Of a DNA stretch of 15,640 nucleotides, positions 820-15,640 are shown piece after piece (the stretch's first letter is position 1; each line of letters starts with the position of its first letter). A model generated the notes under the pieces. It did not search any database. It was given only the letters and a program-made list of their open reading frames with translations, and was not told where the DNA came from. This stretch comes from Candidatus Hermodarchaeota archaeon (GTDB lineage: Archaea > Asgardarchaeota > Lokiarchaeia > Sigyniarchaeales > SOKP01), in contig JBHLLG010000062.1 in assembly GCA_048885925.1 (NCBI GenBank), forward strand, positions 1-15,640, in the 5' to 3' direction. The translations under genes and the position numbers were made by a program.

Positions 820-1261
820 CTTTAAAAGTCCCCTCCTCTCTAATTGCAGTTGCTAATCGTTCTACAATATCCTCAAAATCTCCAACAGCTGTCTCTCCTT
901 CTGCAGCTCGAGATGTATATTGATTAACAAACTGATCACTATAACCTAATTCTTTAAATAATTTCTTCATTAATTTTATTCTATGCATTGATAAAATATT
1001 CCCATTAAAGAAATGGCATGCTCCTAAACAACAACCAACACACGCAACTGCATCTGCTCCGTTGCTTAAAGCATCCATAATCTGAATAGGACCAACTTGA
1101 CCAGTGCATTGTACTCGAATTATTCGAATTGCAGGATTATATGCCATTCGAGCTACACCAGCAGTGTTAGCCGAACCTTGTCCGCATTCATTACACATAA
1201 ATACTACAACATTTTCCATCTTTTCAAGTACTTCTGGTTCAATATATTCACATTCACTCAT
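809..1261 (-). CDS. mvhD: Hydrogenase iron-sulfur subunit MvhD/FlpD ([2Fe-2S])
   Basis: Motifs VFMCNEC, IRIIRVQCTGQV, GADAV, GCCLGACHF. Start placed at ATG 1261 (overlaps the hdrA stop; GGAGGTG about 12 nt upstream) rather than GTG 1282. Confidence 0.9.
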   Translation of the reverse strand: MSECEYIEPEVLEKMENVVVFMCNECGQGSANTAGVARMAYNPAIRIIRVQCTGQVGPIQIMDALSNGADAVACVGCCLGACHFFNGNILSMHRIKLMKKLFKELGYSDQFVNQYTSRAAEGETAVGDFEDIVERLATAIREEGTFKDGC

Positions 1262-3290
1262 TTTCGCATACAACACCTCCACCTGAAGTGGCGATTATTT
1301 CATCTAATAATTGGTCATCTCTAAAATTCAATAATTGTATTGCCCCTGTCGGACAAACAGGCATACACATCCCACATGATTTGCAGGCTATTTCATTAAC
1401 CATTGGAGTCCCATCATCATTTATTTCAATTGCAGCAGGAGCGCATATTGTCTTACATAATCCACATTTAACACATAGATCCAAATCTATGGAAGGTACT
1501 AACATTTCTTTTTCTATGTATCCCTTTACTAATGGAGCAGCTGCTAATGCTGCTGCATTTCCCGCATGGGCAACAGTTTCTGAGATATCTTTAGGTCCCT
1601 GAATGGCACCTGCTAGATAAATACCACCTTTACTACTTAAAGTAGGGTTCATTTTGATATGAAATTCTTTTAAGAATCCTTCCTTTGAACGAAGCACATG
1701 TAATTTAGATCCTAAAGGTCCAATTCCTTCAGGGGGCACCATTGCTGCGGATAGTACTACTAAATCTGAATGGAGTCTCAATGGAGTTTGACTCAATGTA
1801 TCTTCGACAATAACACTTAAATCACCTGAAACGGGATCTCTAAGAACTTCTGAAGGGCGTCCTCTAATGAATCTTACCCCAACTTCTTGTGCTGATTTAT
1901 ATAATTCTTCGAAATTTAATCCAGGTGTTCTAACATCAATATAACATATTGTAACATCTGCATTAGGATACATTTCTTTAACAATTCTTGCATTTTTTAT
2001 TGCAAACTTGCAACAAACACCTGTACAATATTGATTCCCAACTTGATCATTTCTACTCCCTACACATTGAATCATTACAATACTTTTTGGAAATTTTCCA
2101 TCTGAAGGACGTAAAACTTGACTATTTGTCAGGGAAGTTGGTGATAACATTCGCTCTAATTTAAGTTGTGTAATAACATCTTCATAACCCTCTTGCCCGT
2201 AATGATATGGCTCAATTTCAGTAGGATCATATTCATCATAACCTGCAGCAACTATTATTGAACCAACTTTAAAAATTTTAGTTTCAGATTCCATAGAAAA
2301 ATCAACAGCCTGTACAGGACAAATATTAATACAAGTATTACATTCAATACATGCCTTCTTATCCCTTACATAAGTTGCAGGTATTGCTTGTGGATATGCC
2401 TTGTATATTGCATTTCGCATTGACATGCCACTATCCCATTCATTTGGAATTTCAACTGGACAATGAGCAGCACATTCACCACATGAGGTACAGTTATCTT
2501 TTACATATCGAGGTTTGATTTCTATCTCAACTTCGAAATTTCCCATCGATCCGTCAACATTTTTAATCTGAGCGTTAGTATATAACTCTATTAATGGATG
2601 ATTCGCAACTCCATTTGTTAGAGGAGAGATTGAGCATTGTGGACATTCTAACGTCGGAAATGTTTTATTCAATTGTGTCATATGACCTCCAATTGTCGAA
2701 TTTCTTTCGACTAAGTAAACTGGAATACCCAACTCAGCCATATCATAAGCAGATCTGAGTCCTGCAATACCAGCACCTATTACTAGTGCAGCCTTAGTTG
2801 TTGGGATCTTCCTAGTTTCAACATCTTCTAATTTTCTTGCTCTATTAACTCCAGCTTCAACCAGTCTCATTGCTTTATTTGTTGCCTTTTCTTTTTGTTT
2901 TTGATGAACCCAACTACAGTATTCTCGTACGTTTACTTGCTGATGTTTATGCTTATTAAGACCCATCTCTTCAATTGCATTCGCAAATGTTCTTCCATGT
3001 TGATTTTTAGAACAAGATGCTACAACAGTGCGGTTAACTCCTAATTCTTCTATAGAATCTTTAACCATTTGAACTCCGGGTTTTGAACACATAAACATAT
3101 AATGTTCTGCTTTAACAACATTAGGTAATGTTGACGCATATTCAGCAACTTTAGTTACATCTACCGTTCCTGCAACATTGTGTCCACAATGACATACAAA
3201 CACTCCTATTCGTGGTTCATCATTCTCAGCGGCTACAACCTTTTCCCCTATACTTTTGGTTTCTTCTAACCTTTCTTCTTTTACGGTCAA
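1254..3290 (-). CDS. hdrA: Heterodisulfide reductase subunit A (FAD, Fe-S)
   Basis: RIGVFVCHCG, ALVIGAGIAG (FAD), KTFPTLECPQC, inserted 2x[4Fe-4S] (CTSCGEC..CP, CIECNTC..CP), IQCVGSR..YCTGVCC, and a C-terminal ferredoxin pair. TTG start with GAGGAGG RBS. Confidence 0.96.
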   Translation of the reverse strand: MTVKEERLEETKSIGEKVVAAENDEPRIGVFVCHCGHNVAGTVDVTKVAEYASTLPNVVKAEHYMFMCSKPGVQMVKDSIEELGVNRTVVASCSKNQHGRTFANAIEEMGLNKHKHQQVNVREYCSWVHQKQKEKATNKAMRLVEAGVNRARKLEDVETRKIPTTKAALVIGAGIAGLRSAYDMAELGIPVYLVERNSTIGGHMTQLNKTFPTLECPQCSISPLTNGVANHPLIELYTNAQIKNVDGSMGNFEVEIEIKPRYVKDNCTSCGECAAHCPVEIPNEWDSGMSMRNAIYKAYPQAIPATYVRDKKACIECNTCINICPVQAVDFSMESETKIFKVGSIIVAAGYDEYDPTEIEPYHYGQEGYEDVITQLKLERMLSPTSLTNSQVLRPSDGKFPKSIVMIQCVGSRNDQVGNQYCTGVCCKFAIKNARIVKEMYPNADVTICYIDVRTPGLNFEELYKSAQEVGVRFIRGRPSEVLRDPVSGDLSVIVEDTLSQTPLRLHSDLVVLSAAMVPPEGIGPLGSKLHVLRSKEGFLKEFHIKMNPTLSSKGGIYLAGAIQGPKDISETVAHAGNAAALAAAPLVKGYIEKEMLVPSIDLDLCVKCGLCKTICAPAAIEINDDGTPMVNEIACKSCGMCMPVCPTGAIQLLNFRDDQLLDEIIATSGGGVVCENE

Positions 3291-3291
3291 C

Positions 3292-4209
3292 TTATATAGC
3301 CTCCTCTTCTTTCTTTATTTCTACTCCTCCAAAAATGTAATTCTTTCCCATTAATTGATATTGTAACCCTATGAATTCTTGGTCCATACCCATACAATAA
3401 GCAGTTAGTTGAGAAAGATGAATTACTGGATAATCGTAATTACAGCTCTTATTTTTATTTAAATAATCTTGTCCAGTTTCATATTGCAAATGACAAAATG
3501 GACAAATATCCAATATAAAATCTGGTTTTACTTCATCAATATTTTTCATCTTTTCTGCGAAAATTGTCATACTTGCATTACCATCATAAGCTTTAACACC
3601 ACCTCCAGCTCCACAGCAGGTAAGTTGTTCATTGAATCGTACAGATTCAATTCCTAAAACTTCAACAAATTCTTCAATAATTGTTGGTCCTTCCGAACTT
3701 TCAATTTCTCTAATTCTTGTAGGCTTCAGAAAATGACAACCATAATGTATCGCAGCTTTAGCATTTACTTTTCTAACAATTAAATCTTCTATACCCCAGG
3801 GTCCAACCTCATAACCTAAAACTTCAGCAACATGCCGAACATTAATAGTTCCCTTAAATTCATAATTTCCAATGAGTTTTAATCTTTCATTTACCATATT
3901 ACGATGATCTTCATTTTCTTTTAAGTGCTTATTAACTTCTTGAAGAGTTCCAAAACATCCATTACATACTGTCAAAATATCTGCGTCTAATTGTTCTGCA
4001 ATACATAGATTTCTAGCCGCAGCAACCATCCAATCAACTTTATTAAAAGATCGGAAAACTCCGGGTGCTGGACAACAAGTTGCTCTTTCCATATCTAAAA
4101 TTTCGTATCCTAACTTTTTCATTACAAATTTCGTTGATTTTTCAATTGCAGGGTATCGATTGGGCATAATACACCCTAAGAAGAAAGCAAATGTGTTTTC
4201 TTTAACCAT
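3292..4209 (-). CDS. hdrB: Heterodisulfide reductase subunit B (two CCG domains)
   Basis: FLGC, TCCPAPG, TVCNGC, HYGCH, TCCGAGGG, ICPFCHLQ: the non-cubane cluster ligands are present. Confidence 0.96.
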   Translation of the reverse strand: MVKENTFAFFLGCIMPNRYPAIEKSTKFVMKKLGYEILDMERATCCPAPGVFRSFNKVDWMVAAARNLCIAEQLDADILTVCNGCFGTLQEVNKHLKENEDHRNMVNERLKLIGNYEFKGTINVRHVAEVLGYEVGPWGIEDLIVRKVNAKAAIHYGCHFLKPTRIREIESSEGPTIIEEFVEVLGIESVRFNEQLTCCGAGGGVKAYDGNASMTIFAEKMKNIDEVKPDFILDICPFCHLQYETGQDYLNKNKSCNYDYPVIHLSQLTAYCMGMDQEFIGLQYQLMGKNYIFGGVEIKKEEEAI

Positions 4210-4212
4210 ATT

Positions 4213-4770
4213 TTATTTCTCCTCCTCTTCCTTTTTCTCCTTCTTAACCGGAGGTAAATCGAACAAATGTTCTTCAATATTTTTTAAATCTTTATCATCC
4301 CCCTCTTGTTTAAATTTAAACGCAGTAGGAGGTAATTCTTCTAATCCTAATTCTACTCTTCGTTTTCTTACTTCATCATTTATCGGTACGGCATGTCCAA
4401 AATTTTTCAAATATCCTACAACAGCTCTATGATTAGGAGAAATATTTCCTAATTTTGTGGCATAATTTCTTAATTCCATTATTACATCTGTAGGTCTTAC
4501 ATCACGCGGACATCGTTCGTAACACTGATAACATGTGGTACATAACCAAATATCAGGATCTTTTAATACCGATAAATCTCCTAAAACTACTTTTCTCACA
4601 ATTGAACGTGTTTTTAAAGCAGTCCATCTCCCACTTTCACAGCTCGCTGTGCATGTTCCGCATTGGATGCACTGCCAAATATTTGATTTTCTTTCTATAT
4701 TTTTAAAAAAATCTTTATCAAAATCTACATCCGTTTTATATTCACGGTGTTGTTCTTTTACATCAGACAT
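4213..4770 (-). CDS. hdrC: Heterodisulfide reductase subunit C
   Basis: CIQCGTCTASC and IWLCTTCYQCYERCPR motifs, GHAVPIN; adjacent to hdrB. Confidence 0.95.
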   Translation of the reverse strand: MSDVKEQHREYKTDVDFDKDFFKNIERKSNIWQCIQCGTCTASCESGRWTALKTRSIVRKVVLGDLSVLKDPDIWLCTTCYQCYERCPRDVRPTDVIMELRNYATKLGNISPNHRAVVGYLKNFGHAVPINDEVRKRRVELGLEELPPTAFKFKQEGDDKDLKNIEEHLFDLPPVKKEKKEEEEK

Positions 4771-4792
4771 TAATCATCACTCTTTTTTGATT

Positions 4793-4809
4793 AAAAAATA
4801 AAAAAAAAA
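4793..4809 (-). terminator. Possible oligo-T terminator or attenuator between dsrE2-like gene and hdrC
   Basis: Long T tract on the minus strand just after the stop at 4827. Archaeal intrinsic terminators are oligo-T, but the DNA is AT-rich generally. Confidence 0.3.
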
Positions 4810-4826
4810 TATTATTTTATTTTAAA

Positions 4827-5249
4827 TTATAATGAAACTATTTGTCCACTATTGCTCATTTCTAAAAATGAAGCAGCTCCAACAGGTTCTTCTACCCAAT
4901 CAAGTAAATCTTCTCTTTTTATCCCCATTAAATCCATTGTCATTTGACATGGATATAACTTCAAATTACCACTTTCTACTCCGTCCTTAATCAATTGCAT
5001 AGGGTCGTCAATTCCGAATTTTTTCATCCTTTTTCTAAATATCTTTGCTCCCATACCTTTCATAGGAGTAGGCATTCCAGCAACCTTAGGCTTAAATTTT
5101 TTGGTTAATAGATTTAAACCCCAAAAAGTAAAGAAAAAATTCATTTTCATATCCATAGCGTCACCTGTTGAACCAAGGATAGCCATCATTGCGAACTTTT
5201 CGAATGATTTATCCTTTACAATAAAATTTACTGTTCCGTTTTCAGGCAC
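4827..5249 (-). CDS. DsrE2/DrsE-like (DsrE/DsrF family) sulfurtransferase
   Basis: FFFTFWGLNLL and YPCQMTMDLMGI with the conserved Cys, GAASFLE. Start placed at GTG 5249 after an AGGTGA RBS (ORF track start 5258). Confidence 0.85.
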   Translation of the reverse strand: MPENGTVNFIVKDKSFEKFAMMAILGSTGDAMDMKMNFFFTFWGLNLLTKKFKPKVAGMPTPMKGMGAKIFRKRMKKFGIDDPMQLIKDGVESGNLKLYPCQMTMDLMGIKREDLLDWVEEPVGAASFLEMSNSGQIVSL

Positions 5250-5295
5250 ATATATCACCTTTTTTTTCTGTTTTTGTATTTTTATGTTAATTTTC

Positions 5296-5325
5296 TCTGA
5301 CTTCAGTCAGAATTTTTTTTATAAA
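5296..5325 (-). promoter_or_regulatory. Putative internal promoter (TTTATAAA) followed by a perfect palindrome TCTGACT-N2-AGTCAGA
   Basis: 7-bp perfect inverted repeat at 5296-5311. TATA-like box at 5325-5318 on the minus strand, preceded by an A-rich BRE-like tract. Confidence 0.45.
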
Positions 5326-5350
5326 TTTTTAATTATAATTGTTGATTTTA

Positions 5351-5692
5351 TTACATCCAAGAGATTAGTTTTGGCGTTGTATCCAAAATATCTACAAGAT
5401 CATCATATTCAATAAGTCTAACCTTTTCACTAATGTATTCAAGAGCAATACCACGTGCTTTTAAATCAGGTATCATTGCAAATATAATGACGTTTACGTC
5501 AAGAAGGTCTTCCATTTGCTTAGGAATTCTTCCTTTAGTTGTAATACCAATCACTCCGTCATGAATCAAGACTATTCCAATGTTAGAATTCTTTTTTTTC
5601 TGTGATTTTAAAATCGGTAATAATCTTTCCAAATGAGTCCCTGTATTACTACTGTATCCAAATAAATAAACCACATCAAGAGTCTCTACCAT
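5351..5692 (-). CDS. dsrH: DsrH/TusB family sulfur relay protein
   Basis: IVLIHDGV, DLKARGI and C-terminal ISW; third gene in an E-F-H order. Confidence 0.85.
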   Translation of the reverse strand: MVETLDVVYLFGYSSNTGTHLERLLPILKSQKKKNSNIGIVLIHDGVIGITTKGRIPKQMEDLLDVNVIIFAMIPDLKARGIALEYISEKVRLIEYDDLVDILDTTPKLISWM

Positions 5693-5707
5693 TATTTCTA
5701 CACCTCG

Positions 5708-6076
5708 TTAAAACCTAAAACATGTATTAGCGTCTTCAATTAGTTCTATTAACTCATCAAAATTAATGATTTTTAAATTTTCATATTCAATTAAGTCTTC
5801 TTTTGTTAAGCCTGCGTCATATAAAGATGAATCTATTACATAAAGCTCCAAATCAGATAAATCTGCCATTTCAAGAACCTCATTCATTGAATCCATTCCA
5901 ACAGCTTCCGGAAAAGCATTTTTACTTAGTAAATAAACCGCATCTCCCATAAATACTATTTTACATTCAATATATTCTCCAAGTGCTACAAAACCAGAAC
6001 CAATCCTAATTGCTTCTGCTGCGGAATTCTTTCCAATGGGTGATTGATCACTTATTATCAAAACGGATTCTATCAT
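5708..6076 (-). CDS. dsrF: DsrF/TusC-like (DsrE family) protein
   Basis: SPIG..AAEAIR, VFMGDAVY, LYVIDSSL..GL; lies between the DsrE-like and DsrH-like genes. Confidence 0.8.
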   Translation of the reverse strand: MIESVLIISDQSPIGKNSAAEAIRIGSGFVALGEYIECKIVFMGDAVYLLSKNAFPEAVGMDSMNEVLEMADLSDLELYVIDSSLYDAGLTKEDLIEYENLKIINFDELIELIEDANTCFRF

Positions 6077-6081
6077 TTTTC

Positions 6082-6450
6082 TTAAAACCCCGCTCCAAAT
6101 ACAATTATTTTATCTGACTCAATTGCCCAATTTGAAAAGTCCCCTAAACCTTCTTCAGTTGCGCCCTCAATAAAATCTTGTTGCTTTAATCCCGTTATAC
6201 TAACCCATGTACTGCAACCAGCAGCTGGGATATTATTTTCTAAGCAAAATTGTTGGATCTTATTTGGCATATTCCTAATAGATGTACCACAGCTAATATC
6301 CTTCTTAAGATTGTAAACCCCTGTTCCAAAGAAAAAAATTCCTCTAATTTTATTTCCCTTTTTTATCATTGCTTTACCAATTTCGATCAATGAATCTACT
6401 GCTTCAAACTTATATGGCTCTGTACTTACAAAGAAAGTATAAGTCGTCAT
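6082..6450 (-). CDS. dsrE: DsrE/TusD-like sulfurtransferase
   Basis: EPY, GIFFFGTGVYN, AAGCSTW (Cys at the position of the DsrE/TusD active Cys78), GLGDF. Confidence 0.82.
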   Translation of the reverse strand: MTTYTFFVSTEPYKFEAVDSLIEIGKAMIKKGNKIRGIFFFGTGVYNLKKDISCGTSIRNMPNKIQQFCLENNIPAAGCSTWVSITGLKQQDFIEGATEEGLGDFSNWAIESDKIIVFGAGF

Positions 6451-6480
6451 AGCTTTGCCGAACCTCTAAAAACTCGTTAT

Positions 6481-6705
6481 TTATGCTTTTTTAATTACAA
6501 AGATTAAATTTCCATTATCTTCTCGAAGTTCTAATAATTCATCGCCTAACTTATTAAGTAATGCTGGAATATCGTTTTTAGCACCAATATCATCCGCAAT
6601 TACTTCTATGACTTGTCCTGGAGTTAAATTTCTTAATTCTTTTTTAGTCTTTAAAACCGGCATAGGACATTTCAAGCCAGTAAAATCAAAAGTTTTTTCA
6701 GCCAT
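6481..6705 (-). CDS. tusA: TusA family sulfur carrier
   Basis: DFTGLKCPMPVL (CPxP motif), GQVIEVIADD..AKNDIP. Likely start is ATG 6705 (ORF track start 6714). Confidence 0.93.
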   Translation of the reverse strand: MAEKTFDFTGLKCPMPVLKTKKELRNLTPGQVIEVIADDIGAKNDIPALLNKLGDELLELREDNGNLIFVIKKA

Positions 6706-6714
6706 TTTTTTCAC

Positions 6715-6973: not shown

Positions 6974-7441
6974 ATGACAGAAACGATAGAACTAGATGAA
7001 TTGGATAAGCAAATACTTAGTATTCTTCAAAATAATGCTAAGGCTTCACTTCGTGACATTGAAAGAGAGATACAATTAACTCCAACATCTATAAGGATGC
7101 GTATTAACCGTTTGAAAGAAAAAAAAGTAATAAAACAATATGTAACTCTTATAGATTGTCGTTATTTAGGATATGATGAGATGGTAATGGCATCTCTTCG
7201 AGTGAATTCATCATTCCCTTTAGATGATATTAAGAGAAAATTAGAACTCCTGGATAAGATAAAATATGCTTATATAATTACTGGTGAATATCCTCTATTT
7301 ATTATGGCAAAATGTATGAATCATCAAGATTCTATGGATCTTATAGAAAAACTTCGCAACCTTCCAGGAGTAGAGGAAGTAAAGACTCAAATTGTATTGG
7401 ATAAAATTAAAGAAGATCCCTCTGTTATTATTCCTAAATAG
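6974..7441 (+). CDS. Lrp/AsnC family transcriptional regulator (full length)
   Basis: LDELDKQILSILQNNAKASLRDI HTH, RINRL..KKVIK.Y, LGY linker, C-terminal RAM domain with TGEY and LPGVEEVKTQIVL. Confidence 0.95.
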   Translation: MTETIELDELDKQILSILQNNAKASLRDIEREIQLTPTSIRMRINRLKEKKVIKQYVTLIDCRYLGYDEMVMASLRVNSSFPLDDIKRKLELLDKIKYAYIITGEYPLFIMAKCMNHQDSMDLIEKLRNLPGVEEVKTQIVLDKIKEDPSVIIPK

Positions 7442-7443
7442 GC

Positions 7444-7524
7444 CTTTCTCCTTTTTATTATTAGAACTATTATGCTGATTATTACAATTCCAGCAATAGA
7501 TATACTTATGATAAGTAAATCATA
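7444..7524 (-). pseudogene. Remnant C-terminal membrane anchor (Loki-CTERM-like) of a deleted convergent surface-protein gene
   Basis: Minus strand reads YDLLIISISIAGIVIISIIVLIIKRRK (TM helix plus basic tail). No start codon; TAA immediately upstream where lrp copy 1 begins. Confidence 0.55.
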
Positions 7525-7736
7525 TTAAATCTAAGATTGAAAAAATGGAGAAGATAAAATATACATATATAATTACTGGAGAATATCCTTTATTCCTTAT
7601 GGCAAAATGTTTAGATCATTCAGATTCTATGGGCTTTATAGAAACACTACGTAATCTTCTTGGAGTTGAGGAAGTTAAAACTGAAATTGTTTTAGACCGA
7701 ATAAAAGAAGATCATTCCATTATTATTCCTGAGTAG
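7521..7736 (+). pseudogene. lrp 3'-end copy 1 (partial RAM domain)
   Basis: HIKSKIEKMEKIKYTYIITGEYPLFLMAKC...KEDHSIIIPE*; homologous to the C-terminus of 6974-7441, with no HTH. Confidence 0.85.
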
Positions 7737-8018
7737 GGTCTCTGTACCTTAATCCCATTGGCAAATACACTTCTATACAAAGCTGTCTAATATAATTATA
7801 GAGCCTGTAAAATAAACTTCACTTAGATTTTACTAGGATTTAATTGAAAGACTTAAAAAACTCCTAATCTTGTTAAATCTGTACTATCCTTTCTATTAAA
7901 CGTATCTATTTCAAAAATCTTCCTTGATCTTCTCCTCAAGTACTTCTCTAAATTGCTTGACCATCATGATAAGGATATTATTATTTTGTAGTTTAAATTA
8001 ATAGTATCAAAATATCTT

Positions 8019-8486
8019 CTAAAAAACATCAAAATCTTCTGGGAAGCGTCCTTGTGGTCTCCATTCTATATCCTTTGCAGTAAGAGCGTAGATTTGGTTG
8101 TATAAATCCTTAATATCAAATTTAAAATCAACAAGATCAAATTTTTTTTTATTCACAATAAATTCGATTTTATTATTTTTCCAGTTACCAGATTTTATTT
8201 CATACAAAATACCAAATAGTACTTCGTCAATCTTTGGAATTTCACCTATATACTCCTCAATATAGCAGTTAATTTTATATAGATCTGAATTAAATCCTTC
8301 AATATCACACCCAAGTTCATATTTTTCGAAATGTAACCTATGTTGTTTTCCAGATCTCACTAATTCAATGCCTTCTAAAAGCTCAGGTTCGTGAAAATTT
8401 TCGGCAAATTTTTCAAGAGAATCGAGAAATGGATCCAATCCAGATTTATCAGTTAAGGCTCGTATTCTTGCGTCGTAATTAGTCAT
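8019..8486 (-). CDS. Hypothetical protein (155 aa, acidic)
   Basis: Clean ATG-started ORF with an AT-rich upstream region; no recognised motif. Confidence 0.7.
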   Translation of the reverse strand: MTNYDARIRALTDKSGLDPFLDSLEKFAENFHEPELLEGIELVRSGKQHRLHFEKYELGCDIEGFNSDLYKINCYIEEYIGEIPKIDEVLFGILYEIKSGNWKNNKIEFIVNKKKFDLVDFKFDIKDLYNQIYALTAKDIEWRPQGRFPEDFDVF

Positions 8487-8611
8487 TATTATAATTAGTA
8501 ATAATATCTAAATAAACTATTTTTTTTAAAAAAAAAAAATAACAATTATTAAATCTAAAAAAATTCGATATGATTTAATATGAACTGAAAAAATAATTAA
8601 GGCTTTTAGAA

Positions 8612-9220
8612 TTGACTGTAGATATATATTCTGATGATAAAGAATCGAGAAATATGTTATATTTAGTTTTTGATTTGGTTAAAAGAAGGGTTAACGAAAG
8701 AAAAATATCCAAGCGACTGATTTATAAAACCCTTAAATTGATATCAAATAGTTATATAGACAATTTTAACGCAACGGAATTTGAACGTTTTTTGCTAGAT
8801 CCAGGATATTCGACCAAGGAACATATCATCTTCCCTTCTAATAATTGTTTTTTAATTAAATACTCAACATTTTTATTCCTTATTCATCTCTAAATATCAT
8901 TCTCATATATAGCAGAGATGTTACTTGAGAAAGAGATTATAAAGGTTTTAATTTATATCCAGCAAGATAATTCTATGGAGGGAGAGGTTTTAGATTTCTT
9001 TAAAATTCTTAATTCATCATTAATTCAACTTGATATTGAGAGATTTTTTGTCAATAGGATTATGTATGAAGCAGACATGAATTTAGAACATAATAAGCAG
9101 TCTTATCTACTTGCTGATTTTTTTATTGATTACTTGATGAGAAATAAACGACCAGACCTTTCATTATCAGAGTTAAAGAATAGATTAACACTATCAAATA
9201 AATGTCCAACAAATTTATAG
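8612..9220 (+). pseudogene. Hypothetical gene probably split by one in-frame TAA
   Basis: ORFs 8612-8893 and 8918-9220 are in the same frame. They are separated only by TAA 8891-8893 and 8 sense codons. Confidence 0.55.
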
Positions 9221-9223
9221 ATA

Positions 9224-9553
9224 AAAGACGTGATTAATTAAAAAATATGTTGCGTTGCGTTAATTGACTGCCGTCAATTAGGATATCGAGAGATGGTGAT
9301 GGCATCTTTAAGAGTGAATGCTTCAAAACCTTTAGAACAAGTTAAAACAGAGATTGAGGGTATGGAAAAAATAAAGTATGCTTATGTAGTTACTGGGAAG
9401 TATCCTTTATTCATTATGGCAAAATGTCTTAACCATCAGGATTCTATGGGACTAATTGAAACTTTAAGAAACCTTCCTGGAGTTGAAGAAGTTAAGACTC
9501 AAATTGTGTTAGATAAAATTAAAGAAGATCCTTCTGTTATTATACCAGAGTAA
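9224..9553 (+). pseudogene. lrp 3'-end copy 2 (linker plus complete RAM domain; open ORF 9293-9553)
   Basis: KDVI..KKYVA..LIDCRQLGYREMVMASLRVNASKP...KEDPSVIIPE*. The 5' part is disrupted by 4-nt and 5-nt tandem duplications. Confidence 0.85.
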
Positions 9554-9600
9554 TTTAATAAATCACTTTTTATAAAAAAATAGAAAATAAGAAAAATATA

Positions 9601-9682
9601 AATTAAATAATATTATTTCTGTGGTTTATTCAAGGATTTCTAATATTATGGTTTATTCAAGAATTAGTATAATTAAATAATA
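9601..9682. repeat. Short local direct repeats
   Basis: TGGTTTATTCAAG at 9622-9634 and 9649-9661; AATTAAATAATA at 9601-9612 and 9671-9682. Confidence 0.6.
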
Positions 9683-9715
9683 GGGTCGTTTTCTCTTTAA
9701 CTTTAAATTGAGTAA

Positions 9716-11038
9716 TTAAAGGCTATTGTATAATTTATGGAGTTCCTCTTCATTAAACTTATGGGAAATCATACGTGAATGTGAATCAGAGGAGCTAATT
9801 AGACTAATGCATCGTCCCAAAGCATTTTTTGCTGCTTCTTTATTTCCTAATTCAAGATAAACTGTTCCAAGATCATACCAAGCGAAAGGATCTTTAGGGA
9901 TTCTAGAAGTATATTGTTGTAATAAGCTTACTGCATCGTTATATTTTTCCAGTTTTATTTTTACATCTACTAACATTTTTAGATAATTTATTGATGTAAC
10001 ATCATGAGTCCTTATTAATAATTCTGTTAAAATTTGTTCTGCTTCTTCTGGTGGCTTTAACCTTAATTCGAGTTCGAATAATCTATTCTGAGCGTTGAAT
10101 AAATTTGGAACTAATTGAAGAACTCGGTTCCAAATCATTCTCTCTCTATTAAAATCTTCTAACTCCTCATATGCTCTAGCTAAAGTCATTAAAGAATCAG
10201 AATCAAGCGTCATAACCTGCCATTCAAAAAACTTTTCTGGTTCATTAAAATAAGGTTCTGCTTCAGTTAAATTGACATTTTCTTCAAATTCAATTATTTC
10301 ATCAGGATGATCCTCTATATAGCGTTTATATAATTCTCTACAAAGATAAACTATACCAGCGCCCAAAATTGTGCCAGGTGGTCTGACACCCCATGTTTGA
10401 GCTTTAGCGTGCAATTTCTTATCTTCGGGAGTTAAGGGATTTTTATATAGCGATAATTCGGAACAATTTGTCCAGTTAAAGATACAAGAAGGTATTTTTT
10501 TAAATTTTCCTGCTAAATAAACTTTTTTTAAATTAGATAAATTTCTAGCACTTGCAGGTAGACTTTCTAATAAGCAATCTCCTAGACTTAAGTCTTCTAA
10601 ATTCTCTAAATTTCCAAAAGATTCAGGTAAGTTTTTAAGATAAGTTGTTGAGATATTTATTTTTTTAAGACTAGTTATCTTGCCAATAGTTTCAGGTAAT
10701 GTTTTTATTGGCACACTTTTCACTACTAATTCTTTTAGTTTTGTTAAATCACTTATGAAAAGTGGTATTTCAGGAATGTTTACGTACCAAATTTCTAGTA
10801 CTTCTAAATGTGATAACTTAACTATGCTATTTGGAATTACTCCGGGTTTTTGGGTTCCTATATTATCATAATCAGATTTTCCCAATATTCGTAATGTATG
10901 TACATGATCATCTTTTTCAATATAATATGCTCCACCATATGACCTTTTTTTCTCATTCTTAAAACCTTTAAATTTCTCAGATTTTATTGCTTTTCCGATT
11001 TCTTTTACAATATTTCTTTCTTCATTTATAGATACCAT
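9716..11038 (-). CDS. Leucine-rich repeat plus tetratricopeptide repeat protein
   Basis: About six 23-aa LRRs (e.g. LPESFGNLENLEDLSL) ending at LYKNPL. C-terminal TPR-like helices (AWYDLGTVYLELGNKEAAKNAL, YNDAVSLLQQY..RIP). Confidence 0.88.
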   Translation of the reverse strand: MVSINEERNIVKEIGKAIKSEKFKGFKNEKKRSYGGAYYIEKDDHVHTLRILGKSDYDNIGTQKPGVIPNSIVKLSHLEVLEIWYVNIPEIPLFISDLTKLKELVVKSVPIKTLPETIGKITSLKKINISTTYLKNLPESFGNLENLEDLSLGDCLLESLPASARNLSNLKKVYLAGKFKKIPSCIFNWTNCSELSLYKNPLTPEDKKLHAKAQTWGVRPPGTILGAGIVYLCRELYKRYIEDHPDEIIEFEENVNLTEAEPYFNEPEKFFEWQVMTLDSDSLMTLARAYEELEDFNRERMIWNRVLQLVPNLFNAQNRLFELELRLKPPEEAEQILTELLIRTHDVTSINYLKMLVDVKIKLEKYNDAVSLLQQYTSRIPKDPFAWYDLGTVYLELGNKEAAKNALGRCISLISSSDSHSRMISHKFNEEELHKLYNSL

Positions 11039-11127
11039 TCTTTTAAAAACCTAATAAATTTCAATAATTTTACAATACTAAAAAAATGAATTCCGTTTTA
11101 TTATTAGATTTATATCAGATTATATAT

Positions 11128-11454
11128 AAAGTTATAGCCAAATATAAGGAATATACCGTATTAATCGACCGTCATCAATTAGGATATCGTGAGATGGTAA
11201 TGGTATCACTAAGAGTAAATGCTTCAAAACCATTAGAGCATGTTAAAACAGAGATTGAGAATATGGAAAAAATCAAGTATGCCTATGTAGTTACTGGCGA
11301 ATATCCATTATTCATTATGGCAAAATGTATGAATCATCAAGATTCTATGGGTCTTATTGAAAAACTCCGCAACCTTCCAGGAGTAGAAGAGGTTAAAACT
11401 CAAATCGTTTTAGATAAAATAAAAGAAGATCCCTCTGTTATTATTCCTGAGTAA
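11128..11454 (+). pseudogene. lrp 3'-end copy 3 (linker plus complete RAM domain; ORF open from 11086)
   Basis: KVI..KEYTVLIDRHQLGYREMVMVSLRVNASKP...KEDPSVIIPE*; the HTH is missing. Confidence 0.85.
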
Positions 11455-11714
11455 TAAAAATTTTTTTACATGTTTCATCTCCTTATTATTTTAAAATTAA
11501 TAGTTATTCTTCAATTACTCACTTTTTATTCTAACGATTTTTAGTATATCCTTAATGGAAACTAACCCGAAGTTTTTAATAAATTAGAACTAATTTTTTG
11601 ATAAAATTTTCAAACCTAAGTTGGTGAATATTTTACTGAGATTTGAAAGTTTAATTTCTCAACTTGGAAATATTAAAAAGTTTCAATTTGAAACCGAATT
11701 TATTTTTTTGGAAT

Positions 11715-11740
11715 TGTACAGAATTTTGAACGGCTGTACG
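11715..11740. promoter_or_regulatory. Putative operator TGTACAG-N12-CTGTACG
   Basis: Inverted repeat about 68 bp upstream of ATG 11808 and just upstream of a BRE/TATA-like tract. Same geometry as 14915-14940. Confidence 0.5.
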
Positions 11741-11807
11741 AAAGATAGATTTTTAATTCAAATTGGTAAATAATTATCTAACAAAATAAAATTTTGGAGA
11801 AACTAAA

Positions 11808-13820
11808 ATGAAATTACATTCAAACAGAAAATTCATTAATGATAGGGAAAATAGAGAGAAATTGAATAGAAAAATAAAACAAACTCTAAACTTGAAAAAT
11901 ATAAAAATCTACTTAATAGTTTTTATTTTACTCTGGTGTTTTAGTTCAATATTACAAGTAACCTTGTTTCATTTTGATAATCGAGATGATAGGGTCAACA
12001 AGGATTTTGTTGTTAAACCATCTTCAGGTGATTCAGTTACGGTACAATGGATTCGATTATGGGGTGATAAACAGGGTACTGGGGGTAAAGGAATTGCAGT
12101 TGATTCATCTGATAATGTTTATACTATAAGTGAAATAGGGCTTTATGGGTATTATCCTGAAAATATTAAAAGTTTTCTGGTGAAGTATGACAGTTCTGGC
12201 ATGGAGCAATGGAATCGTACTTGGGTAAGGACTTGGTCTGGTAAATCTCTGTCAGAGATAAATGAGGTATCCTTAGATTCGGTAACCGTAGATTCGTTAG
12301 ACAATGTATATGTAGTAGGAACTACATCTACAAATTTTAATAATAATTTCAAATTAATTATAATTCTGATGAAATATGACAGTTCTGGTGTCCAGCAATG
12401 GAATCGTACATGGGATGCTAATTCTTTAGGAGCTGTGGATGTGGATGTGGCAGTAGATTCTTTTGGCAACGTATATGTTTCAGGATGTACTTGGACCGGG
12501 GCTGAAGGGACCAATTTGCTCTTGGTGAAGTATGATAATTCAGGAGTATTACAATGGAATCGCACATGGGGCGGGAATTATAGTGATAATGCTATTGGGG
12601 TGAAAATTGATTCTAATGATAACGTGTACGTAGTAGGAAATATATATGGTTTGGAGATACAACTCGATATGGTCTTGTTGAAGTATGATAGTTCAGGAGT
12701 ATTAATATGGAATCGCACTTGGGGCAGTAGTGGTTGGGAAGAAGTGAAGGGAATAGCACTGGACTCATTAGACAATATATATGTTTCAGGATATACTGGG
12801 GTCGAAGCTGAAGAGGACAATATGGTCTTGGTGAAGTATGATAGTTCAGGAGTGCAACAATGGAATCGTACTTGGATTGGAATTGGACCGGATTGGTTGG
12901 TAAAACATGGAATAGCAGTGGATTCATTTGATAATGTTTACCTTACGGGGAGTATAGAGGAAGGAATAGCTCTTGTGAAATATAACAGTTCTGGTGGGCA
13001 GCAATGGTATCATATATTGAATTTTATAACAGTATATGAGGGTAGTGCATTAGCTGTTGATTCATCAAACAATATTTATATTTCGGGACACACGCTTTGG
13101 AGAAGACCAGCTCTAGTGAAATGTGTATTAAGTAATATTACAATTAATTTCCCAAACCAACTTGGCTTTTTTGGAAGGATATCCCCTATCTTCGATATTT
13201 CCATCAATAATTCGAATTTAGATTCTACTTGGTATACTTTGGATGGTGGGCTGACTAATATTACTTTTTCAGGAATAACAAGAACTATCAATCAAGCAGA
13301 ATGGGATAAGCATGGAGAAGGTATAGTGGAAATTAGATTTTATATGAACAATACTAATGGGAATGAAGAATATGTTGAAGTTTCTGTTATCAAAGATATA
13401 TCTAGTCCAAAAATTACCATAATTAGCCCTGTTCAAAATGAAAAATATGGATCTCAACCTCCTAGTTATATTCTTTCAATTGTAGAACCCAATTTTGAAA
13501 TATTAAGAATTTTTGCTAGGAATATAATGTTTGATGCTCTACCCGATGATCTTTCTGAAGTGTCAGGAACGTTTTCTCAAGATGATTGGGATAAGGTTCC
13601 TCAAGGAGAAGTAACCATAACATTTTGGGTTCGGGATATCACGGGGAAAGAAGTAAGTATAAGTATTGTCATCATAAAAGAAATTCGATTAAGACAACCA
13701 TTTTTATATTTTCCACTTGTTATCTTTGTTTCTATCCTATTTATTGGAGTTTCTGTTTATTATATCAACAAAAATCGTAAATTACCAAAATTAACCCAAG
13801 AGGAACTCGATTCATTATGA
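11808..13820 (+). CDS. Membrane-anchored extracellular beta-propeller (SBBP-like repeat) protein
   Basis: N-terminal hydrophobic segment. About 7 blades of AVDSxxNVYVxG...LVKYDSSGxxQWNRTW. Two beta-rich C-terminal modules (PKITIISP; WDK..GxVxIxF). C-terminal TM helix plus basic tail; many NxT/S sequons. Confidence 0.88.
   Translation: MKLHSNRKFINDRENREKLNRKIKQTLNLKNIKIYLIVFILLWCFSSILQVTLFHFDNRDDRVNKDFVVKPSSGDSVTVQWIRLWGDKQGTGGKGIAVDSSDNVYTISEIGLYGYYPENIKSFLVKYDSSGMEQWNRTWVRTWSGKSLSEINEVSLDSVTVDSLDNVYVVGTTSTNFNNNFKLIIILMKYDSSGVQQWNRTWDANSLGAVDVDVAVDSFGNVYVSGCTWTGAEGTNLLLVKYDNSGVLQWNRTWGGNYSDNAIGVKIDSNDNVYVVGNIYGLEIQLDMVLLKYDSSGVLIWNRTWGSSGWEEVKGIALDSLDNIYVSGYTGVEAEEDNMVLVKYDSSGVQQWNRTWIGIGPDWLVKHGIAVDSFDNVYLTGSIEEGIALVKYNSSGGQQWYHILNFITVYEGSALAVDSSNNIYISGHTLWRRPALVKCVLSNITINFPNQLGFFGRISPIFDISINNSNLDSTWYTLDGGLTNITFSGITRTINQAEWDKHGEGIVEIRFYMNNTNGNEEYVEVSVIKDISSPKITIISPVQNEKYGSQPPSYILSIVEPNFEILRIFARNIMFDALPDDLSEVSGTFSQDDWDKVPQGEVTITFWVRDITGKEVSISIVIIKEIRLRQPFLYFPLVIFVSILFIGVSVYYINKNRKLPKLTQEELDSL
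12090..13120 (+). repeat. Intragenic ~150-bp coding repeats (propeller blades)
   Basis: AAGTATGAYAGTTCWGG...TGGAATCG-like units recur about six times at roughly 150-190 bp intervals. Confidence 0.75.
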
Positions 13821-14371
13821 CATCTGGAAGATTAAAAGGGAAAAGTGAAAGTCTTGAATTAACATCTATATCCAAAAATGATACCTCGCCTGTAGAGTCG
13901 GAATTTGATTTAAAAGCAAAAGGTCAAAAGAAAGTTTATGAAAAACGGCTACAAGGTATGACTCTCAAAATTTATTGGTACATTTTAACTCATAGACGAG
14001 CGGGCGTAAGGGAAATTCAAAAGTCATTAAAACTTTCATCTCCAGGAACAGTATCCTATCAAATAAATAAATTATTGAAAGCAGGGATTATTTCAAAAAA
14101 AGAAGAAGATAACATGTATTATGTGAAAAAGGAAGTAAAAAAGGGTATGTTAGGATTTTATTTTCACTTAGGACCTTTTATGATACCCCGATTTTCTTTA
14201 TACTTAGTTATCAATATTTTGGGTTTTGTTGGATATATAATTTTTGCCGGTATATATGGGGATATGTTTATTACTAATGTAGGAAGTATATTTTTCTTAT
14301 TTTTCTTGATTTTTAGTACTTCTGAAAATATTATTGAATCTAAAAAACTTTGGGAAAGAAAACCTACCTAA
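13817..14371 (+). CDS. Membrane-anchored winged-HTH transcriptional regulator
   Basis: TLKIYWYIL...GVREIQKSLKLSSPGTVSYQINKLLKAGII (wHTH), followed by two hydrophobic helices. ATGA overlap with the upstream gene. Confidence 0.82.
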   Translation: MTSGRLKGKSESLELTSISKNDTSPVESEFDLKAKGQKKVYEKRLQGMTLKIYWYILTHRRAGVREIQKSLKLSSPGTVSYQINKLLKAGIISKKEEDNMYYVKKEVKKGMLGFYFHLGPFMIPRFSLYLVINILGFVGYIIFAGIYGDMFITNVGSIFFLFFLIFSTSENIIESKKLWERKPT

Positions 14372-14610
14372 TAAGCATAAAAATCAGTAGATAATAATGG
14401 ATGTGCATTTAATATATTAACTGCCATTTTTTTCTACTTTTTTTAATATTTTTTTACTCTTTCTTTTTCACTATCACATTAATTTCTTCAATTCTTATTA
14501 AAATAAAAGAAAGTTATTTTAGACTTTTTAATGCGAAAGTGATTTTTCTTTCCAAAGTGATCTATCAAAAGTTAATACATTTCATTTTTCTTAGTTAATT
14601 TTGCCTAACT

Positions 14611-14757
14611 TTATTTATTATGGCAAAATGCTTGAATCATTCAGATTCTATGGAATTTATTGAAAAACTCCGCAACCTCCCTGGAGTTGAAGAAGTTAAA
14701 ACTAAAATTGTTTTAGACCGAATTAAGGAAGATCACTCGATTATCATACCTGAGTAA
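14611..14757 (+). pseudogene. lrp 3'-end copy 4 (shortest; below the ORF-track cutoff)
   Basis: LFIMAKCLNHSDSMEFIEKLRNLPGVEEVKTKIVLDRIKEDHSIIIPE*, 48 codons plus TAA. Confidence 0.88.
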
Positions 14758-14912
14758 TCCATTAGTACTATTTTCATTCTCTATAGTTGATTATGTCTTA
14801 ATTTTATAAAAAATTTCATATAGTTTTATTGAAATAAAAGGAAACACCTTTCTCTGCTTAAAAACACCTCTTTTTATAATAAATCATAAATTAATTTTGA
14901 GGTGTTCTAATC

Positions 14913-14942
14913 TCTGAACAACTAAGTGACATATTGTTCAGA
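14913..14942. promoter_or_regulatory. Putative operator TCTGAACAA-N12-TTGTTCAGA
   Basis: Perfect 9-bp inverted repeat about 70 bp upstream of ATG 15011. Confidence 0.55.
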
Positions 14943-15010
14943 AAATAGTATTATCAAGGTATTAAGATAACTAATTATTTGACAAATATATATACAATTA
15001 TGTAAAATAA

Positions 15011-15640
15011 ATGATGAATATGAAAAAAAAATCTATTTGGATTATAGTAGGAGTTATTGGTGCATCATTAATAACGGTATTAGGTATTTCCATTCCTATA
15101 TTGATAGTACCGCCAATAGTACCAGATGAATGGCTCACATGCACTCCAGAAGAACAAGGTATGAACTCAAGCAAAATTGAGGATATGTATGACTATATTT
15201 ATGAAAATTCTATAAATTTGCATAGTGTGTTAATTATACGAAATGGATGTATTGTTGATGAAAATTTCTTAGAAAACTCTATTCGCCGTGAAGAGAATTA
15301 TTATGCTCCTAATTGGATGGTCAGTGGTGGAAGGCATAGAGTGTATTCTGCTACTAAAAGCATAATTTCCCTGTTAATTGGTATAGCAATAGAAATGGGA
15401 TACATTGACAACTTAAGTCAAACACTTTATGAATTTTTTGAAGATTATTGGAATCCTCAGATTGATGTACGGAAAAAGAACATAACTATTAAACATTTAC
15501 TAATGCAAACTTCAGGGCTTCCATATGAAGCTGTTGATGAACCTTATATTAAGAAATCTCTTGATGAGCCTCTCTCATTTGATCCTGGAACTGATTGGTT
15601 ATATAGTGGTTTCGCGGGATGTCACCTTTTATCAGCGATT
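15011..15640 (+). CDS. Serine hydrolase, beta-lactamase/AmpC (class C)-like family, N-terminally anchored (3' partial)
   Basis: Not in the ORF track. Hand translation: MMNMKKKSIWIIVGVIG (TM), TPEEQGM, HSVLIIRNG, YSATKS (SxxK), ITIKHLLMQTSGL, FDPGTDWLYS. Confidence 0.9.
   Translation, partial: MMNMKKKSIWIIVGVIGASLITVLGISIPILIVPPIVPDEWLTCTPEEQGMNSSKIEDMYDYIYENSINLHSVLIIRNGCIVDENFLENSIRREENYYAPNWMVSGGRHRVYSATKSIISLLIGIAIEMGYIDNLSQTLYEFFEDYWNPQIDVRKKNITIKHLLMQTSGLPYEAVDEPYIKKSLDEPLSFDPGTDWLYSGFAGCHLLSAI

Follow-up and report, generated by a model that had tools for sequence, protein, structure and literature searches.

Which process would leave behind one complete regulator gene followed, in the same orientation, by a series of fragments that each correspond to its 3′ end and that are separated from one another by unrelated genes? 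This question is raised by a stretch of DNA from Candidatus Hermodarchaeota archaeon (Lokiarchaeia; assembly GCA_048885925.1, contig JBHLLG010000062.1), a complete contig of 15,640 bp (C62) that is hereafter termed the window and that carries a gene of the Lrp/AsnC family (lrp) with four truncated copies downstream. The source is a metagenome-derived bin of 3.9 Mb in 181 contigs (labeled G000), with a G+C content of 29% and a completeness of 95%, and all genomes compared in this study are metagenome bins or contigs. A preliminary description of the window had proposed a hotspot of tandem accretion, where DNA units made of an lrp 3′ end and cargo genes integrate repeatedly, and had likened the locus to an integron with a protein-coding gene as its attachment site. 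Our analysis has found insertion with displacement, transfer of units between genera, chimeric gene ends, variable crossover points and no recombinase in cis. On balance, we consider it probable that the locus is a flexible island or recombination hotspot on the 3′ end of lrp, which was built by homology-anchored sequential displacement.

The pieces of lrp were located with a nucleotide hidden Markov model (HMM) of full-length orthologues (nhmmer). The truncated copies are termed tails, and a tail whose 5′ start sits at profile position N is labeled tN, with the full gene end corresponding to position 449. The array in the window consists of the following features.

6974-7441, plus strand: intact lrp, the anchor gene, coding for 155 residues (open reading frame (ORF), Pfam and profile)
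7442-7518: spacer of 77 nt between lrp and tail 1, an almost empty unit (profile and alignment)
7519-7736, plus strand: tail 1, HMM 233-449 (7519-7735), E 4.8e-58, of the other clade's type ('B-type'), with an ORF of 63 residues at 7545-7736
9230-9553, plus strand: tail 2, HMM 132-449 (9230-9552), E 1.7e-89, a chimera, with a RAM-domain ORF of 86 residues at 9293-9553
11145-11454, plus strand: tail 3, HMM 141-449 (11145-11453), E 1.1e-89, a chimera, with an ORF of 122 residues at 11086-11454
14609-14757, plus strand: tail 4, HMM 302-449 (14609-14756), E 1.4e-41, of the other clade's type

The protein encoded by the intact gene contains both domains of the Lrp/AsnC family (PF13404, HTH_AsnC-type, E 3.2e-11; PF01037, AsnC_trans_reg or RAM, E 4.3e-10), and its orthologues in relatives share 63-94% of its amino acids. 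All four tails reside on the plus strand and are closed by stop codons, with ORFs ending at 7736, 9553, 11454 and 14757, and in an alignment of the window copies the similarity breaks off at the stop codon. The copies are 77-85% identical to the full gene and to one another (blastn), and the E-values of their profile matches exclude a chance origin. An intact gene with four co-oriented, 5′-truncated copies that end at the stop, as had been recognized from the sequence beforehand, is confirmed by the profile (E 1e-41 to 1e-89), and the coordinates assigned at that stage (7521-7736, 9224-9553, 11128-11454 and 14611-14757) match ours within few bases, with the start of the third copy 17 bases off. 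A BLASTN of the lrp tail across the genome, which had been proposed as a check, recovered no further nucleotide copy of lrp in the 3.9-Mb assembly. Tails that nearly adjoin the intact gene, as does tail 1 of the window, are also found in G053, G097 and the metagenome loci L141, L142 and L147.

The comparison with relatives, which had likewise been suggested, reveals a conserved left flank next to variable cargo and a variable number of tails, both in genomes of the genus and in metagenome contigs. Within the genus, the order hdr, dsrE-like, tusA-like and lrp and the orientation of these genes are conserved and the DNA past lrp varies (tblastn); of the 11 genomes of the genus with at least 3 kb of sequence past lrp, tails are present in five (G000, G002, G005, G008 and G010) and absent in another five, and the remaining one, G012, contains an N-terminal fragment. 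Genomes of the family carry between 0 and 4 tails. A search throughout the order, where the last 55 residues of Lrp were compared to 120 genomes, has uncovered further arrays in several genera of the family, of which 20 loci were fetched, picked for having tails. The first set of sequences that was profiled, 41 in total and including these 20, contains 51 partial pieces, all of which are co-oriented and 46 of which extend to HMM position 444 or beyond, and thus to the stop codon. Their 5′ starts lie between 56 and 390 and accumulate at 331-372, and their lengths range from about 78-82 to 394 nt. In a separate sample of metagenome contigs, selected by two peptide words within lrp, those that contain the full gene and extend 2.5 kb or more beyond it show no tail in 10 of 20 cases, one in six and two in four. 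The closest relative found (94% amino acid identity in Lrp, 80.6% nucleotide identity in the left flank) carries two tails and has no cargo in common with the window.

Two loci show a second arrangement. In L041 (G016:C68, 9117-10344) and L045 (G018:C28, 9628-9985), a frameshifted copy of lrp or a lone tail is found across the hdr cluster, next to a TusA-like gene that is more distantly related (38-42% identity), and this arrangement may constitute a second, mirrored locus. Three assemblies break 200-600 nt past the lrp stop codon (G011:C156, locus L042; G009:C46, L049; G016:C15, L005), in keeping with strain variation or repeats at this position.

That DNA has been inserted at the end of lrp is illustrated by the 40 nt that follow each piece. 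In several pairs of genomes, the DNA past a tail in one equals the DNA past the intact lrp in the other: the sequence behind t349 of G126 is the one behind the full genes of G096 and G008, that behind t351 of G104 recurs in G011, that behind t200 of G069 in G012, that behind t305 of G109 in G126 and that behind t56 of G016 in G088. These flank swaps imply that DNA was placed between lrp and its former neighbor in the first genome, and that an lrp end was left before this neighbor. The target gene is found restored by an element-borne 3′ end with the displaced end located downstream in direct orientation. The intact anchor followed by co-oriented, 5′-truncated 3′ pieces corresponds to the architecture of a displacement array, where the newer DNA would be the one next to the gene.

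The inserted units also recur as such in different genomes. A junction between cargo and a tail starting at 368-372 is common to G016, G075, G106 and G111, and the second cargo unit of the window matches G107 together with its tail, the tails starting at 132 and 119, respectively. The 606 nt at the 3′ side of this unit are 93.7% identical to the locus of G107 (L056), where a tail likewise comes next. Such shared joints between cargo and tail suggest that the moving unit behaves as a ring or as a segment flanked by repeats, with lrp 3′ sequence on both sides of the cargo. Between G075 (genus g1) and G111 (genus g14), one cassette shows 96.7% identity over 847 nt, compared to 69.3% in their tusA-dsrE flanks, which demonstrates a recent movement between genera to the same site. 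The flank swaps, this cassette and the chimeric tails described below support the proposal of a tandem-accretion hotspot, where an arriving unit supplies a new 3′ end of lrp and the previous end is displaced. The cassette itself (L050, 7795-8593; L061, L064 and L040, in each case ahead of t368-372 tails) contains two small overlapping ORFs of about 105 and 179 residues, for which no Pfam match was obtained even at E up to 1. On first impression this two-gene module is perhaps a toxin-antitoxin pair. With respect to circular forms, no locus with a true terminal overlap was encountered in a search for this signature. In the metagenome contig L174 (3028 nt), the terminal 59 nt (2970-3028) are 98% identical to an internal tail start (224-282) with the same truncation point, which could reflect a tandem copy of one cassette or the stop of the assembly at a repeat.

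The same observations bear on two other explanations of the array. If it had originated from pure local tandem duplication within the lineage, with copies that diverged and contents that were replaced and no import of units, the location of tail 1, which is in register and 295 nt past the matching part of lrp, would be readily understood, and so would be the presence in G075 of one cassette of 1.2 kb in two copies (84% identity) and of a tail that equals its own lrp over 200 nt. The inter-genus cassette with its divergent flanks, the unrelated cargo from unit to unit and the other clade's sequence type, which is found throughout or in the 5′ part of three of the four window tails, speak against this origin and render it highly improbable. 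The second explanation, an artefact where variants of different strains were stitched in tandem, might be invoked for a metagenome bin of 181 contigs and in light of the contigs of G011, G009 and G016 that end right after lrp. Yet each joint between cargo and tail is a unique sequence and some of the tails show a pseudogene-like decay. The copies differ by 15-36% and therefore hold too few long words in common to be collapsed or chained. Identical joints and arrays are found in independent assemblies, on contigs of 113-474 kb and on metagenome contigs of other projects, and since the same junctions recur in this way a misassembly is exceedingly improbable.

The tails carry a record of where recombination has occurred. 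The lrp genes comprise two sequence types, one in the window's own clade (G011, G053, G115 and G012) and the other in the rest. Tails 1 and 4 of the window are of the other clade's type throughout, and tails 2 and 3 are of this type up to about position 310 and of the own clade's type from there to the stop. The composition of tails 2 and 3, with an incoming 5′ part and a resident 3′ part, is explained by a crossover within the shared segment, which would give such mosaics. Breakpoints were located at about 310-330 for the window tail t132 and, relative to the window's own lrp, at about 305-310 for the window tail t141; t193 of G008 is near-identical to its own lrp up to about 389 and then diverges. 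In G075, positions 250-449 of tail t218 (L050 = G075:C47, 10027-10258; full lrp at 4608-5053) are 100% identical to its own lrp and are preceded by 32 nt with 10 mismatches, a pattern suggestive of recent gene conversion or of an event that is itself very young. The window lrp for its part contains a patch at 310-345 that is identical to tail 3. Finally, tails of 78-82 nt require a crossover beyond position 368. Thus, recombination has taken place at many positions along the homology, including gene conversion with the intact gene, and there is no single fixed crossover or short core, with breakpoints at about 250, 305-330, 389 and beyond 368. Third codon positions are variable over the entire last 100 nt of lrp, and no conserved nucleotide core is visible. 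Mosaic junctions within the shared segment, together with transfer between genomes, are as found in sequential displacement arrays.

Gene conversion between tail and gene could also indicate that the tails have a function of their own, either as stand-alone RAM proteins that modulate Lrp oligomers or as silent cassettes that alter the ligand-binding part of Lrp by conversion. Silent cassettes of the pilS or vls type provide a parallel for the latter. Apart from the conversion events in G075 (200 nt) and in the 310-345 patch of the window lrp, such function would be in line with the open ORFs of the window tails 2 and 3 (86 and 122 residues), which match the whole AsnC_trans_reg domain (E 3e-10 and 3e-11), and with the 64 of 76 tails that show no stop or frameshift well inside, a rough count in view of boundary effects and of a control that passes 82 of 97 full genes. 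However, 12 of the 76 clearly contain internal stops or frameshifts and several are visibly degenerate, and most tails are too short for a RAM fold, with many spanning 27-45 codons. The two C-terminal types differ in few residues, which leaves little to vary, and neither the unrelated cargo nor the flank swaps nor the same pattern at enzymes such as ribonucleotide reductase would be explained by a function of the tails, which we therefore regard as very unlikely.

A central question concerns the machinery responsible for insertion. No integrase or transposase family was matched among the 10 window proteins scanned with Pfam, where transposase families were not searched by name, and the earlier statement that none is visible in the window is thus borne out. 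It had also been suggested to look for a tyrosine recombinase in the neighborhood. In the 20 genomes with arrays, PF00589 finds no match on any lrp contig, and in 11 of the 20 assemblies its sole match is one gene of about 307-333 residues, presumably the host XerA. In five genomes there was no match to the serine recombinase family PF00239 and none above cut-off to the SSV-type integrase PF16795, with two sub-threshold matches elsewhere. To this we add an own profile of 15 tyrosine recombinases of these genomes, which was compared, together with each protein singly (phmmer), to six-frame ORFs of at least 80 residues in 134 loci covering 1.09 Mb; as control it recovered three recombinase genes or fragments of G000. 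In the 134 loci it identified a single fragment, the N-terminal ~50 residues of an integrase at the contig edge of G017:C29. This piece (L046, 1-264, minus strand) is located 2.2 kb from a truncated lrp copy (2523-2816) and resembles recombinases of 283-306 residues in G075 and G111. The junction between the DNA that bears it and the shared sequence does not coincide with a tail. Two further fragments of tyrosine recombinases reside in G000 at C76:6200-6883 (with an internal TGA) and C131:1-246 (at the contig edge). Among the representatives of at least 32 of 86 cargo clusters compared to Pfam, no recombinase was detected; transposase families (DDE, IS200/IS605, TnpB) and Cas1 were not searched by name. 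As no relative of the window lrp was found in the viral contigs of IMG/VR, a viral source of the lrp pieces was rejected. When 26-mers from the last 90 nt of lrp were sought elsewhere in G000 with up to three mismatches, one AT-rich match was the only result, and there is thus no sign of a dif-like twin in what is a weak test. The separators are in-frame coding copies of lrp, and a repeat search alone showed no notable inverted repeat inside the tails.

These results define the standing of site-specific integration in trans, where integrase-less satellites or decayed elements would use a site in the last ~80 nt of lrp and the tails would be attR remnants. The recombinase would then be encoded on a rarely binned virus or plasmid, or would be a Xer-like enzyme of the host, as for integrative mobile elements exploiting Xer (IMEX) and pdif modules. 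A site near the gene end would suit the co-orientation of the tails, nearly all of which end at the stop, the pile-up of short tails at HMM 331-372 and the minimal length of about 78-82 nt, and it would suit the near absence of 5′ heads; 3′ ends are classic targets of integrases. There is precedent in elements of Thaumarchaeota that reside in the 3′-distal region of an AsnC-family gene, with known tandem re-use of the site (PMC6563490), and in tycheposon islands, where new elements push older ones inward and leave partial tRNAs and degraded remnants (bioRxiv 10.1101/2020.12.28.424599). The integrase fragment of G017 at 2.2 kb from an lrp piece, and the fact that three of about 14 tail loci in G000 are AsnC-type regulator genes, might be added in favor. 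Against it stand the lack of tyrosine recombinases on the lrp contigs of 20 genomes and of anything beyond a single Xer-like gene in 11 of these assemblies, the negative searches for SSV-type integrases, serine recombinases, a dif-like twin and an lrp relative in viral contigs, breakpoints that vary between tails without a conserved nucleotide core, tails of up to 394 nt, which is far beyond the need of a site, a joint in G017 that is not at a tail, and about a dozen unrelated genes that show the same signature with no common motif. Integration in trans is thus possible but not likely. The more specific proposal of an integron-like array with lrp as dedicated attachment site is not supported, since no recombinase was found on the lrp contigs of 20 genomes or at a tail in 134 loci, crossovers are varied and about a dozen other genes behave alike. 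Of the two drives considered from the outset, in trans or by homologous recombination, the latter fits better than an integrase-driven process because there is no recombinase in cis and often only a Xer-like gene in the genome, because crossovers are variable, and because the repeats are long and variable, without a nucleotide core, and are found at many unrelated target genes.

These other genes were identified by comparing G000 to itself and classifying local direct repeats of 75-600 nt by their ORF context. The signature consists of an intact gene with a truncated 3′ copy 1-8 kb downstream, where the similarity ends about 0-16 nt from the stop. A strict rule finds five pairs outside C62 (two in C1 and one each in C17, C36 and C115), and a looser list adds about five (C36:13212, C103, C116, C28 and C65). 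The truncated copy is located upstream in three cases (C74, C95 and C128), and there is one candidate 5′ 'head' (C23:12269/17292). Tail loci in G000 other than that of the window are found at these positions.

C1:364086-365700
C1:368528-369963
C17:26556-28503
C36:12211-14478
C36:16256-25878
C103:3952-8660
C115:1818-5296
C116:4492-6010

The genes involved code for a second Lrp/AsnC paralogue, a double AsnC-HTH protein, a class II ribonucleotide reductase, a thiamine pyrophosphate (TPP) enzyme, an acyl-CoA dehydrogenase, a phosphoglucomutase-like protein, a pterin-binding enzyme, an Arf-like GTPase and a NosD protein, and 12 duplicated gene ends have no motif in common beyond A/T-rich words. The second Lrp paralogue carries tails in only two of 34 genomes of the genus. 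Their rarity at this paralogue identifies the window lrp as a true hotspot within a wider phenomenon.

By homology-anchored displacement, the array could have formed as follows. DNA from related archaea would arrive with a 3′ piece of lrp joined to foreign genes, pair with the resident lrp via this homology and become inserted by homologous recombination of the Campbell type or 'ends-in'. The resident gene would stay whole with the incoming 3′ end, and its old 3′ end would be left past the new cargo as a 5′-truncated tail. Repetition of this event would build up the array, with the newest unit adjoining lrp, an order that follows from the model. Once in place, each tail would itself provide a portable homology arm, available for later rounds of exchange or for gene conversion between tail and intact gene. 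The first joint between cargo and tail in each type of cassette would be the product of a rare, homology-facilitated illegitimate recombination, and an integrase encoded by the element would not be needed. We infer the enzymology, which we assign to the recombination machinery of the host, the form of the incoming DNA as a circle or a linear molecule, and the sequence of events.

Several observations weigh against this explanation. Most copies lose their similarity abruptly at the stop codon, which is also where many downstream sequences, unrelated to one another, start. Homology by itself would need selection and fast-diverging spacers to produce this sharp boundary, for which a site at the gene end would be the simpler cause. 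The excess of 3′ pieces, with about 10 loci of G000 containing a downstream tail compared to three with an upstream one and a single candidate head, forces an appeal to selection against upstream insertions, as random homology-anchored insertion should give both. Variable breakpoints are not a proof either, since gene conversion does occur, as seen in G075, and could later have blurred them. A comparison of the identity of 5′ and 3′ parts of lrp to that of the flank revealed no clear discordance and is uninformative: the correlations are 0.35-0.52 for all parts, and the top outliers all involve L041, a second locus with a different flank. The fragment in G012 (L037, G012:C37, 5667-5832; the same contig as L088), which covers residues 1-63 of lrp and is located about 850 nt past the intact gene, is unique in the arrays as a clear N-terminal piece and is not explained by displacement. 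In those bacteria for which its frequency has been measured, the initial illegitimate join is a rare event (PMC5361080), yet tails are common at the lrp locus. Finally, integrative elements of Thaumarchaeota target the 3′-distal region of an AsnC-family gene (PMC6563490), which raises the prior for a site-specific element here. As a speculative and rather unlikely extension, Asgard archaea (Promethearchaeota) might possess a general, recombinase-independent means of gene capture that uses 3′ ends of conserved genes as portable attachment sites. The lrp locus would then be the most active of these, resembling an integron that lacks an integrase, and would pass on surface proteins, toxin-antitoxin-like modules and signalling genes of eukaryote-like character (small GTPases, LRR and TPR proteins) from one genus to another. 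The 3′ bias and the boundaries at stop codons would in this case point to a dedicated and hitherto undescribed gene-end mechanism beyond selection alone.

The units that have accumulated by displacement in the window, and the sequences flanking the array, contain the following features.

1-6714, minus strand: left flank with genes resembling frhG/mvhD, hdrA, hdrB, hdrC, a DsrE/DsrF/DsrH-like and a TusA-like gene (putative names, from the translations)
7737-9229: cargo unit 2, with an ORF of 155 residues without assigned family (8019-8486, minus strand) and a split gene (8612-8893 and 8918-9220)
9554-11144, minus strand: cargo unit 3, with a protein of 440 residues containing LRR and TPR (9716-11038; ORFs and Pfam)
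11455-14608, plus strand: cargo unit 4, with an SBBP beta-propeller membrane protein (11808-13820) and a winged-helix membrane protein (13817-14371)
14758-15640, plus strand: right flank, with a beta-lactamase-family gene that starts at 15011 and runs off the contig

The cargo is unrelated between units, as judged by repeat search and Pfam, in agreement with the initial description, and it is found on both strands, with 8019-8486 and 9716-11038 on the minus and 11808-14371 on the plus strand, and thus lacks the single orientation of integron cargo. In unit 2, the adjacent ORFs of 93 and 100 residues at 8612-9220 together correspond to one ORF of 202 residues in G107, and the interrupted gene is probably a decaying cargo gene. 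The gene pair of unit 4 resides with its tail directly behind lrp in G002, and its winged-helix gene is followed by a tail in all five loci that contain it. The SBBP gene (11808-13820) shows internal repeats of about 153 nt. A beta-lactamase-family gene is likewise located to the right of the lrp array in G010.

Throughout the family, the cargo assigned from the cluster representatives includes NosD/beta-helix and SBBP surface proteins, TPR and LRR proteins, Ras-like and Gtr1/RagA-like GTPases with a Roadblock domain, MarR-like regulators, three PIN proteins, a HEPN-nucleotidyltransferase pair, a GH15 enzyme with a sugar transporter, an MtrH-like protein, a large JAB-domain protein and an alcohol dehydrogenase. 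The C-terminal region of the SBBP protein (about residues 444-626) recurs at the end of 23 cargo proteins with NosD/beta-helix or beta-propeller bodies and looks like an anchoring or secretion module of fast-changing surface proteins. The locus L062 (G118:C128, 3966-19691) contains a single unit of 15.7 kb between lrp and a tail, with a fusion of a Gtr1/RagA-like GTPase and Roadblock, a Ras-like GTPase, three MalT-like TPR proteins and a winged-helix-TPR protein, a cargo of eukaryote-like signalling genes.

The described features find partial counterparts in known systems. In the icd gene of E. coli, phage 21 and e14 supply a substitute 3′ end and leave the displaced end downstream as a pseudogene fragment. 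This is a single integrase-driven event with a fixed crossover, in contrast to the family-wide array at lrp, where no recombinase was found. Integrons form arrays of units of one to three genes that are added at one end, thereby moving older units back, and contain toxin-antitoxin and other small genes as cargo. The lrp arrays share with them the small units of one to three genes, the presumed addition at one end and the toxin-antitoxin modules and small genes without known function among the cargo, but they appear to lack IntI, attI and attC, carry cargo on both strands and use a piece of a host gene as separator. Integrons have been drawn as a parallel for displacement arrays in a study on type VI secretion system (T6SS) loci (PMC5361080; Kirchberger et al., 2017). 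As outlined there, arrays of Rhs, contact-dependent inhibition (CDI) and T6SS genes are proposed to form by a C-terminal displacement, when a conserved stretch anchors the DNA and the far end joins illegitimately, thus pushing old 3′ regions back as orphans; once made, T6SS and Rhs arrays spread between strains by homologous recombination, and no integrase is known. The arrays at lrp resemble these loci in the anchoring by a protein-coding gene, the new module beside the intact gene and the string of co-oriented, 5′-truncated 3′ pieces. They differ in that the displaced pieces of Rhs and T6SS loci are variable toxin tips with immunity genes that are retained by selection, whereas the lrp tails are conserved RAM-domain ends, the variable part is unrelated cargo between the tails and the hosts are Asgard archaea.

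Tycheposons of Prochlorococcus, as portrayed by Hackl et al. (bioRxiv 10.1101/2020.12.28.424599), share the repeated insertion at a conserved gene end, partial copies of the target and older units that are pushed inward, as well as degraded remnants, cargo-only stretches and an island place that is conserved in many genomes. These elements rely on tyrosine recombinases and short fixed attachment sites (att) in tRNA genes, unlike lrp with its protein-coding target, repeats of 78-394 nt, variable crossovers and no recombinase found at a tail in 134 loci. The archaeal elements described by Krupovic et al. (2019; PMC6563490) target the 3′ end of the same regulator family and keep the gene intact. 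These are proviruses, casposons and integrative-conjugative elements with an own integrase or casposase and short att or target-site duplications, in contrast to the small, integrase-free units at lrp, and the accessible portion of the paper mentions no array in which several tails alternate with units of the latter kind. Arrays of lrp tails were also not found in the literature searched on mobile elements and hypervariable regions of Asgard archaea and Lokiarchaeia and on archaeal Lrp/AsnC attachment sites. The notion that the phenomenon has not been described in archaea can thus be maintained for the arrays themselves but not for the targeting of AsnC-family 3′ ends, which was already known from Thaumarchaeota (PMC6563490).

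Collectively, the presented study has identified the lrp locus as a family-wide site of gene gain that is seen by sequence alone, with about half of the genomes and contigs examined carrying at least one displaced end, with complete turnover of cargo between close relatives and with one unit that has recently moved between genera. To our knowledge, little is known on gene exchange in Asgard archaea, where integrases and other mobile elements have rarely been encountered. If the process is homology-anchored and free of recombinases, it would extend a model hitherto proposed for bacterial toxin loci to ordinary archaeal genes, and the tails could serve as markers to date and order transfers in uncultured lineages. 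If instead a recombinase acts in trans, lrp would have to be added to the archaeal attachment sites as a new one, whose record of use is unusually long. The cargo of these arrays includes expanded families of signalling and surface proteins that are typical of Asgard archaea, and the locus thus offers a concrete route for their spread.

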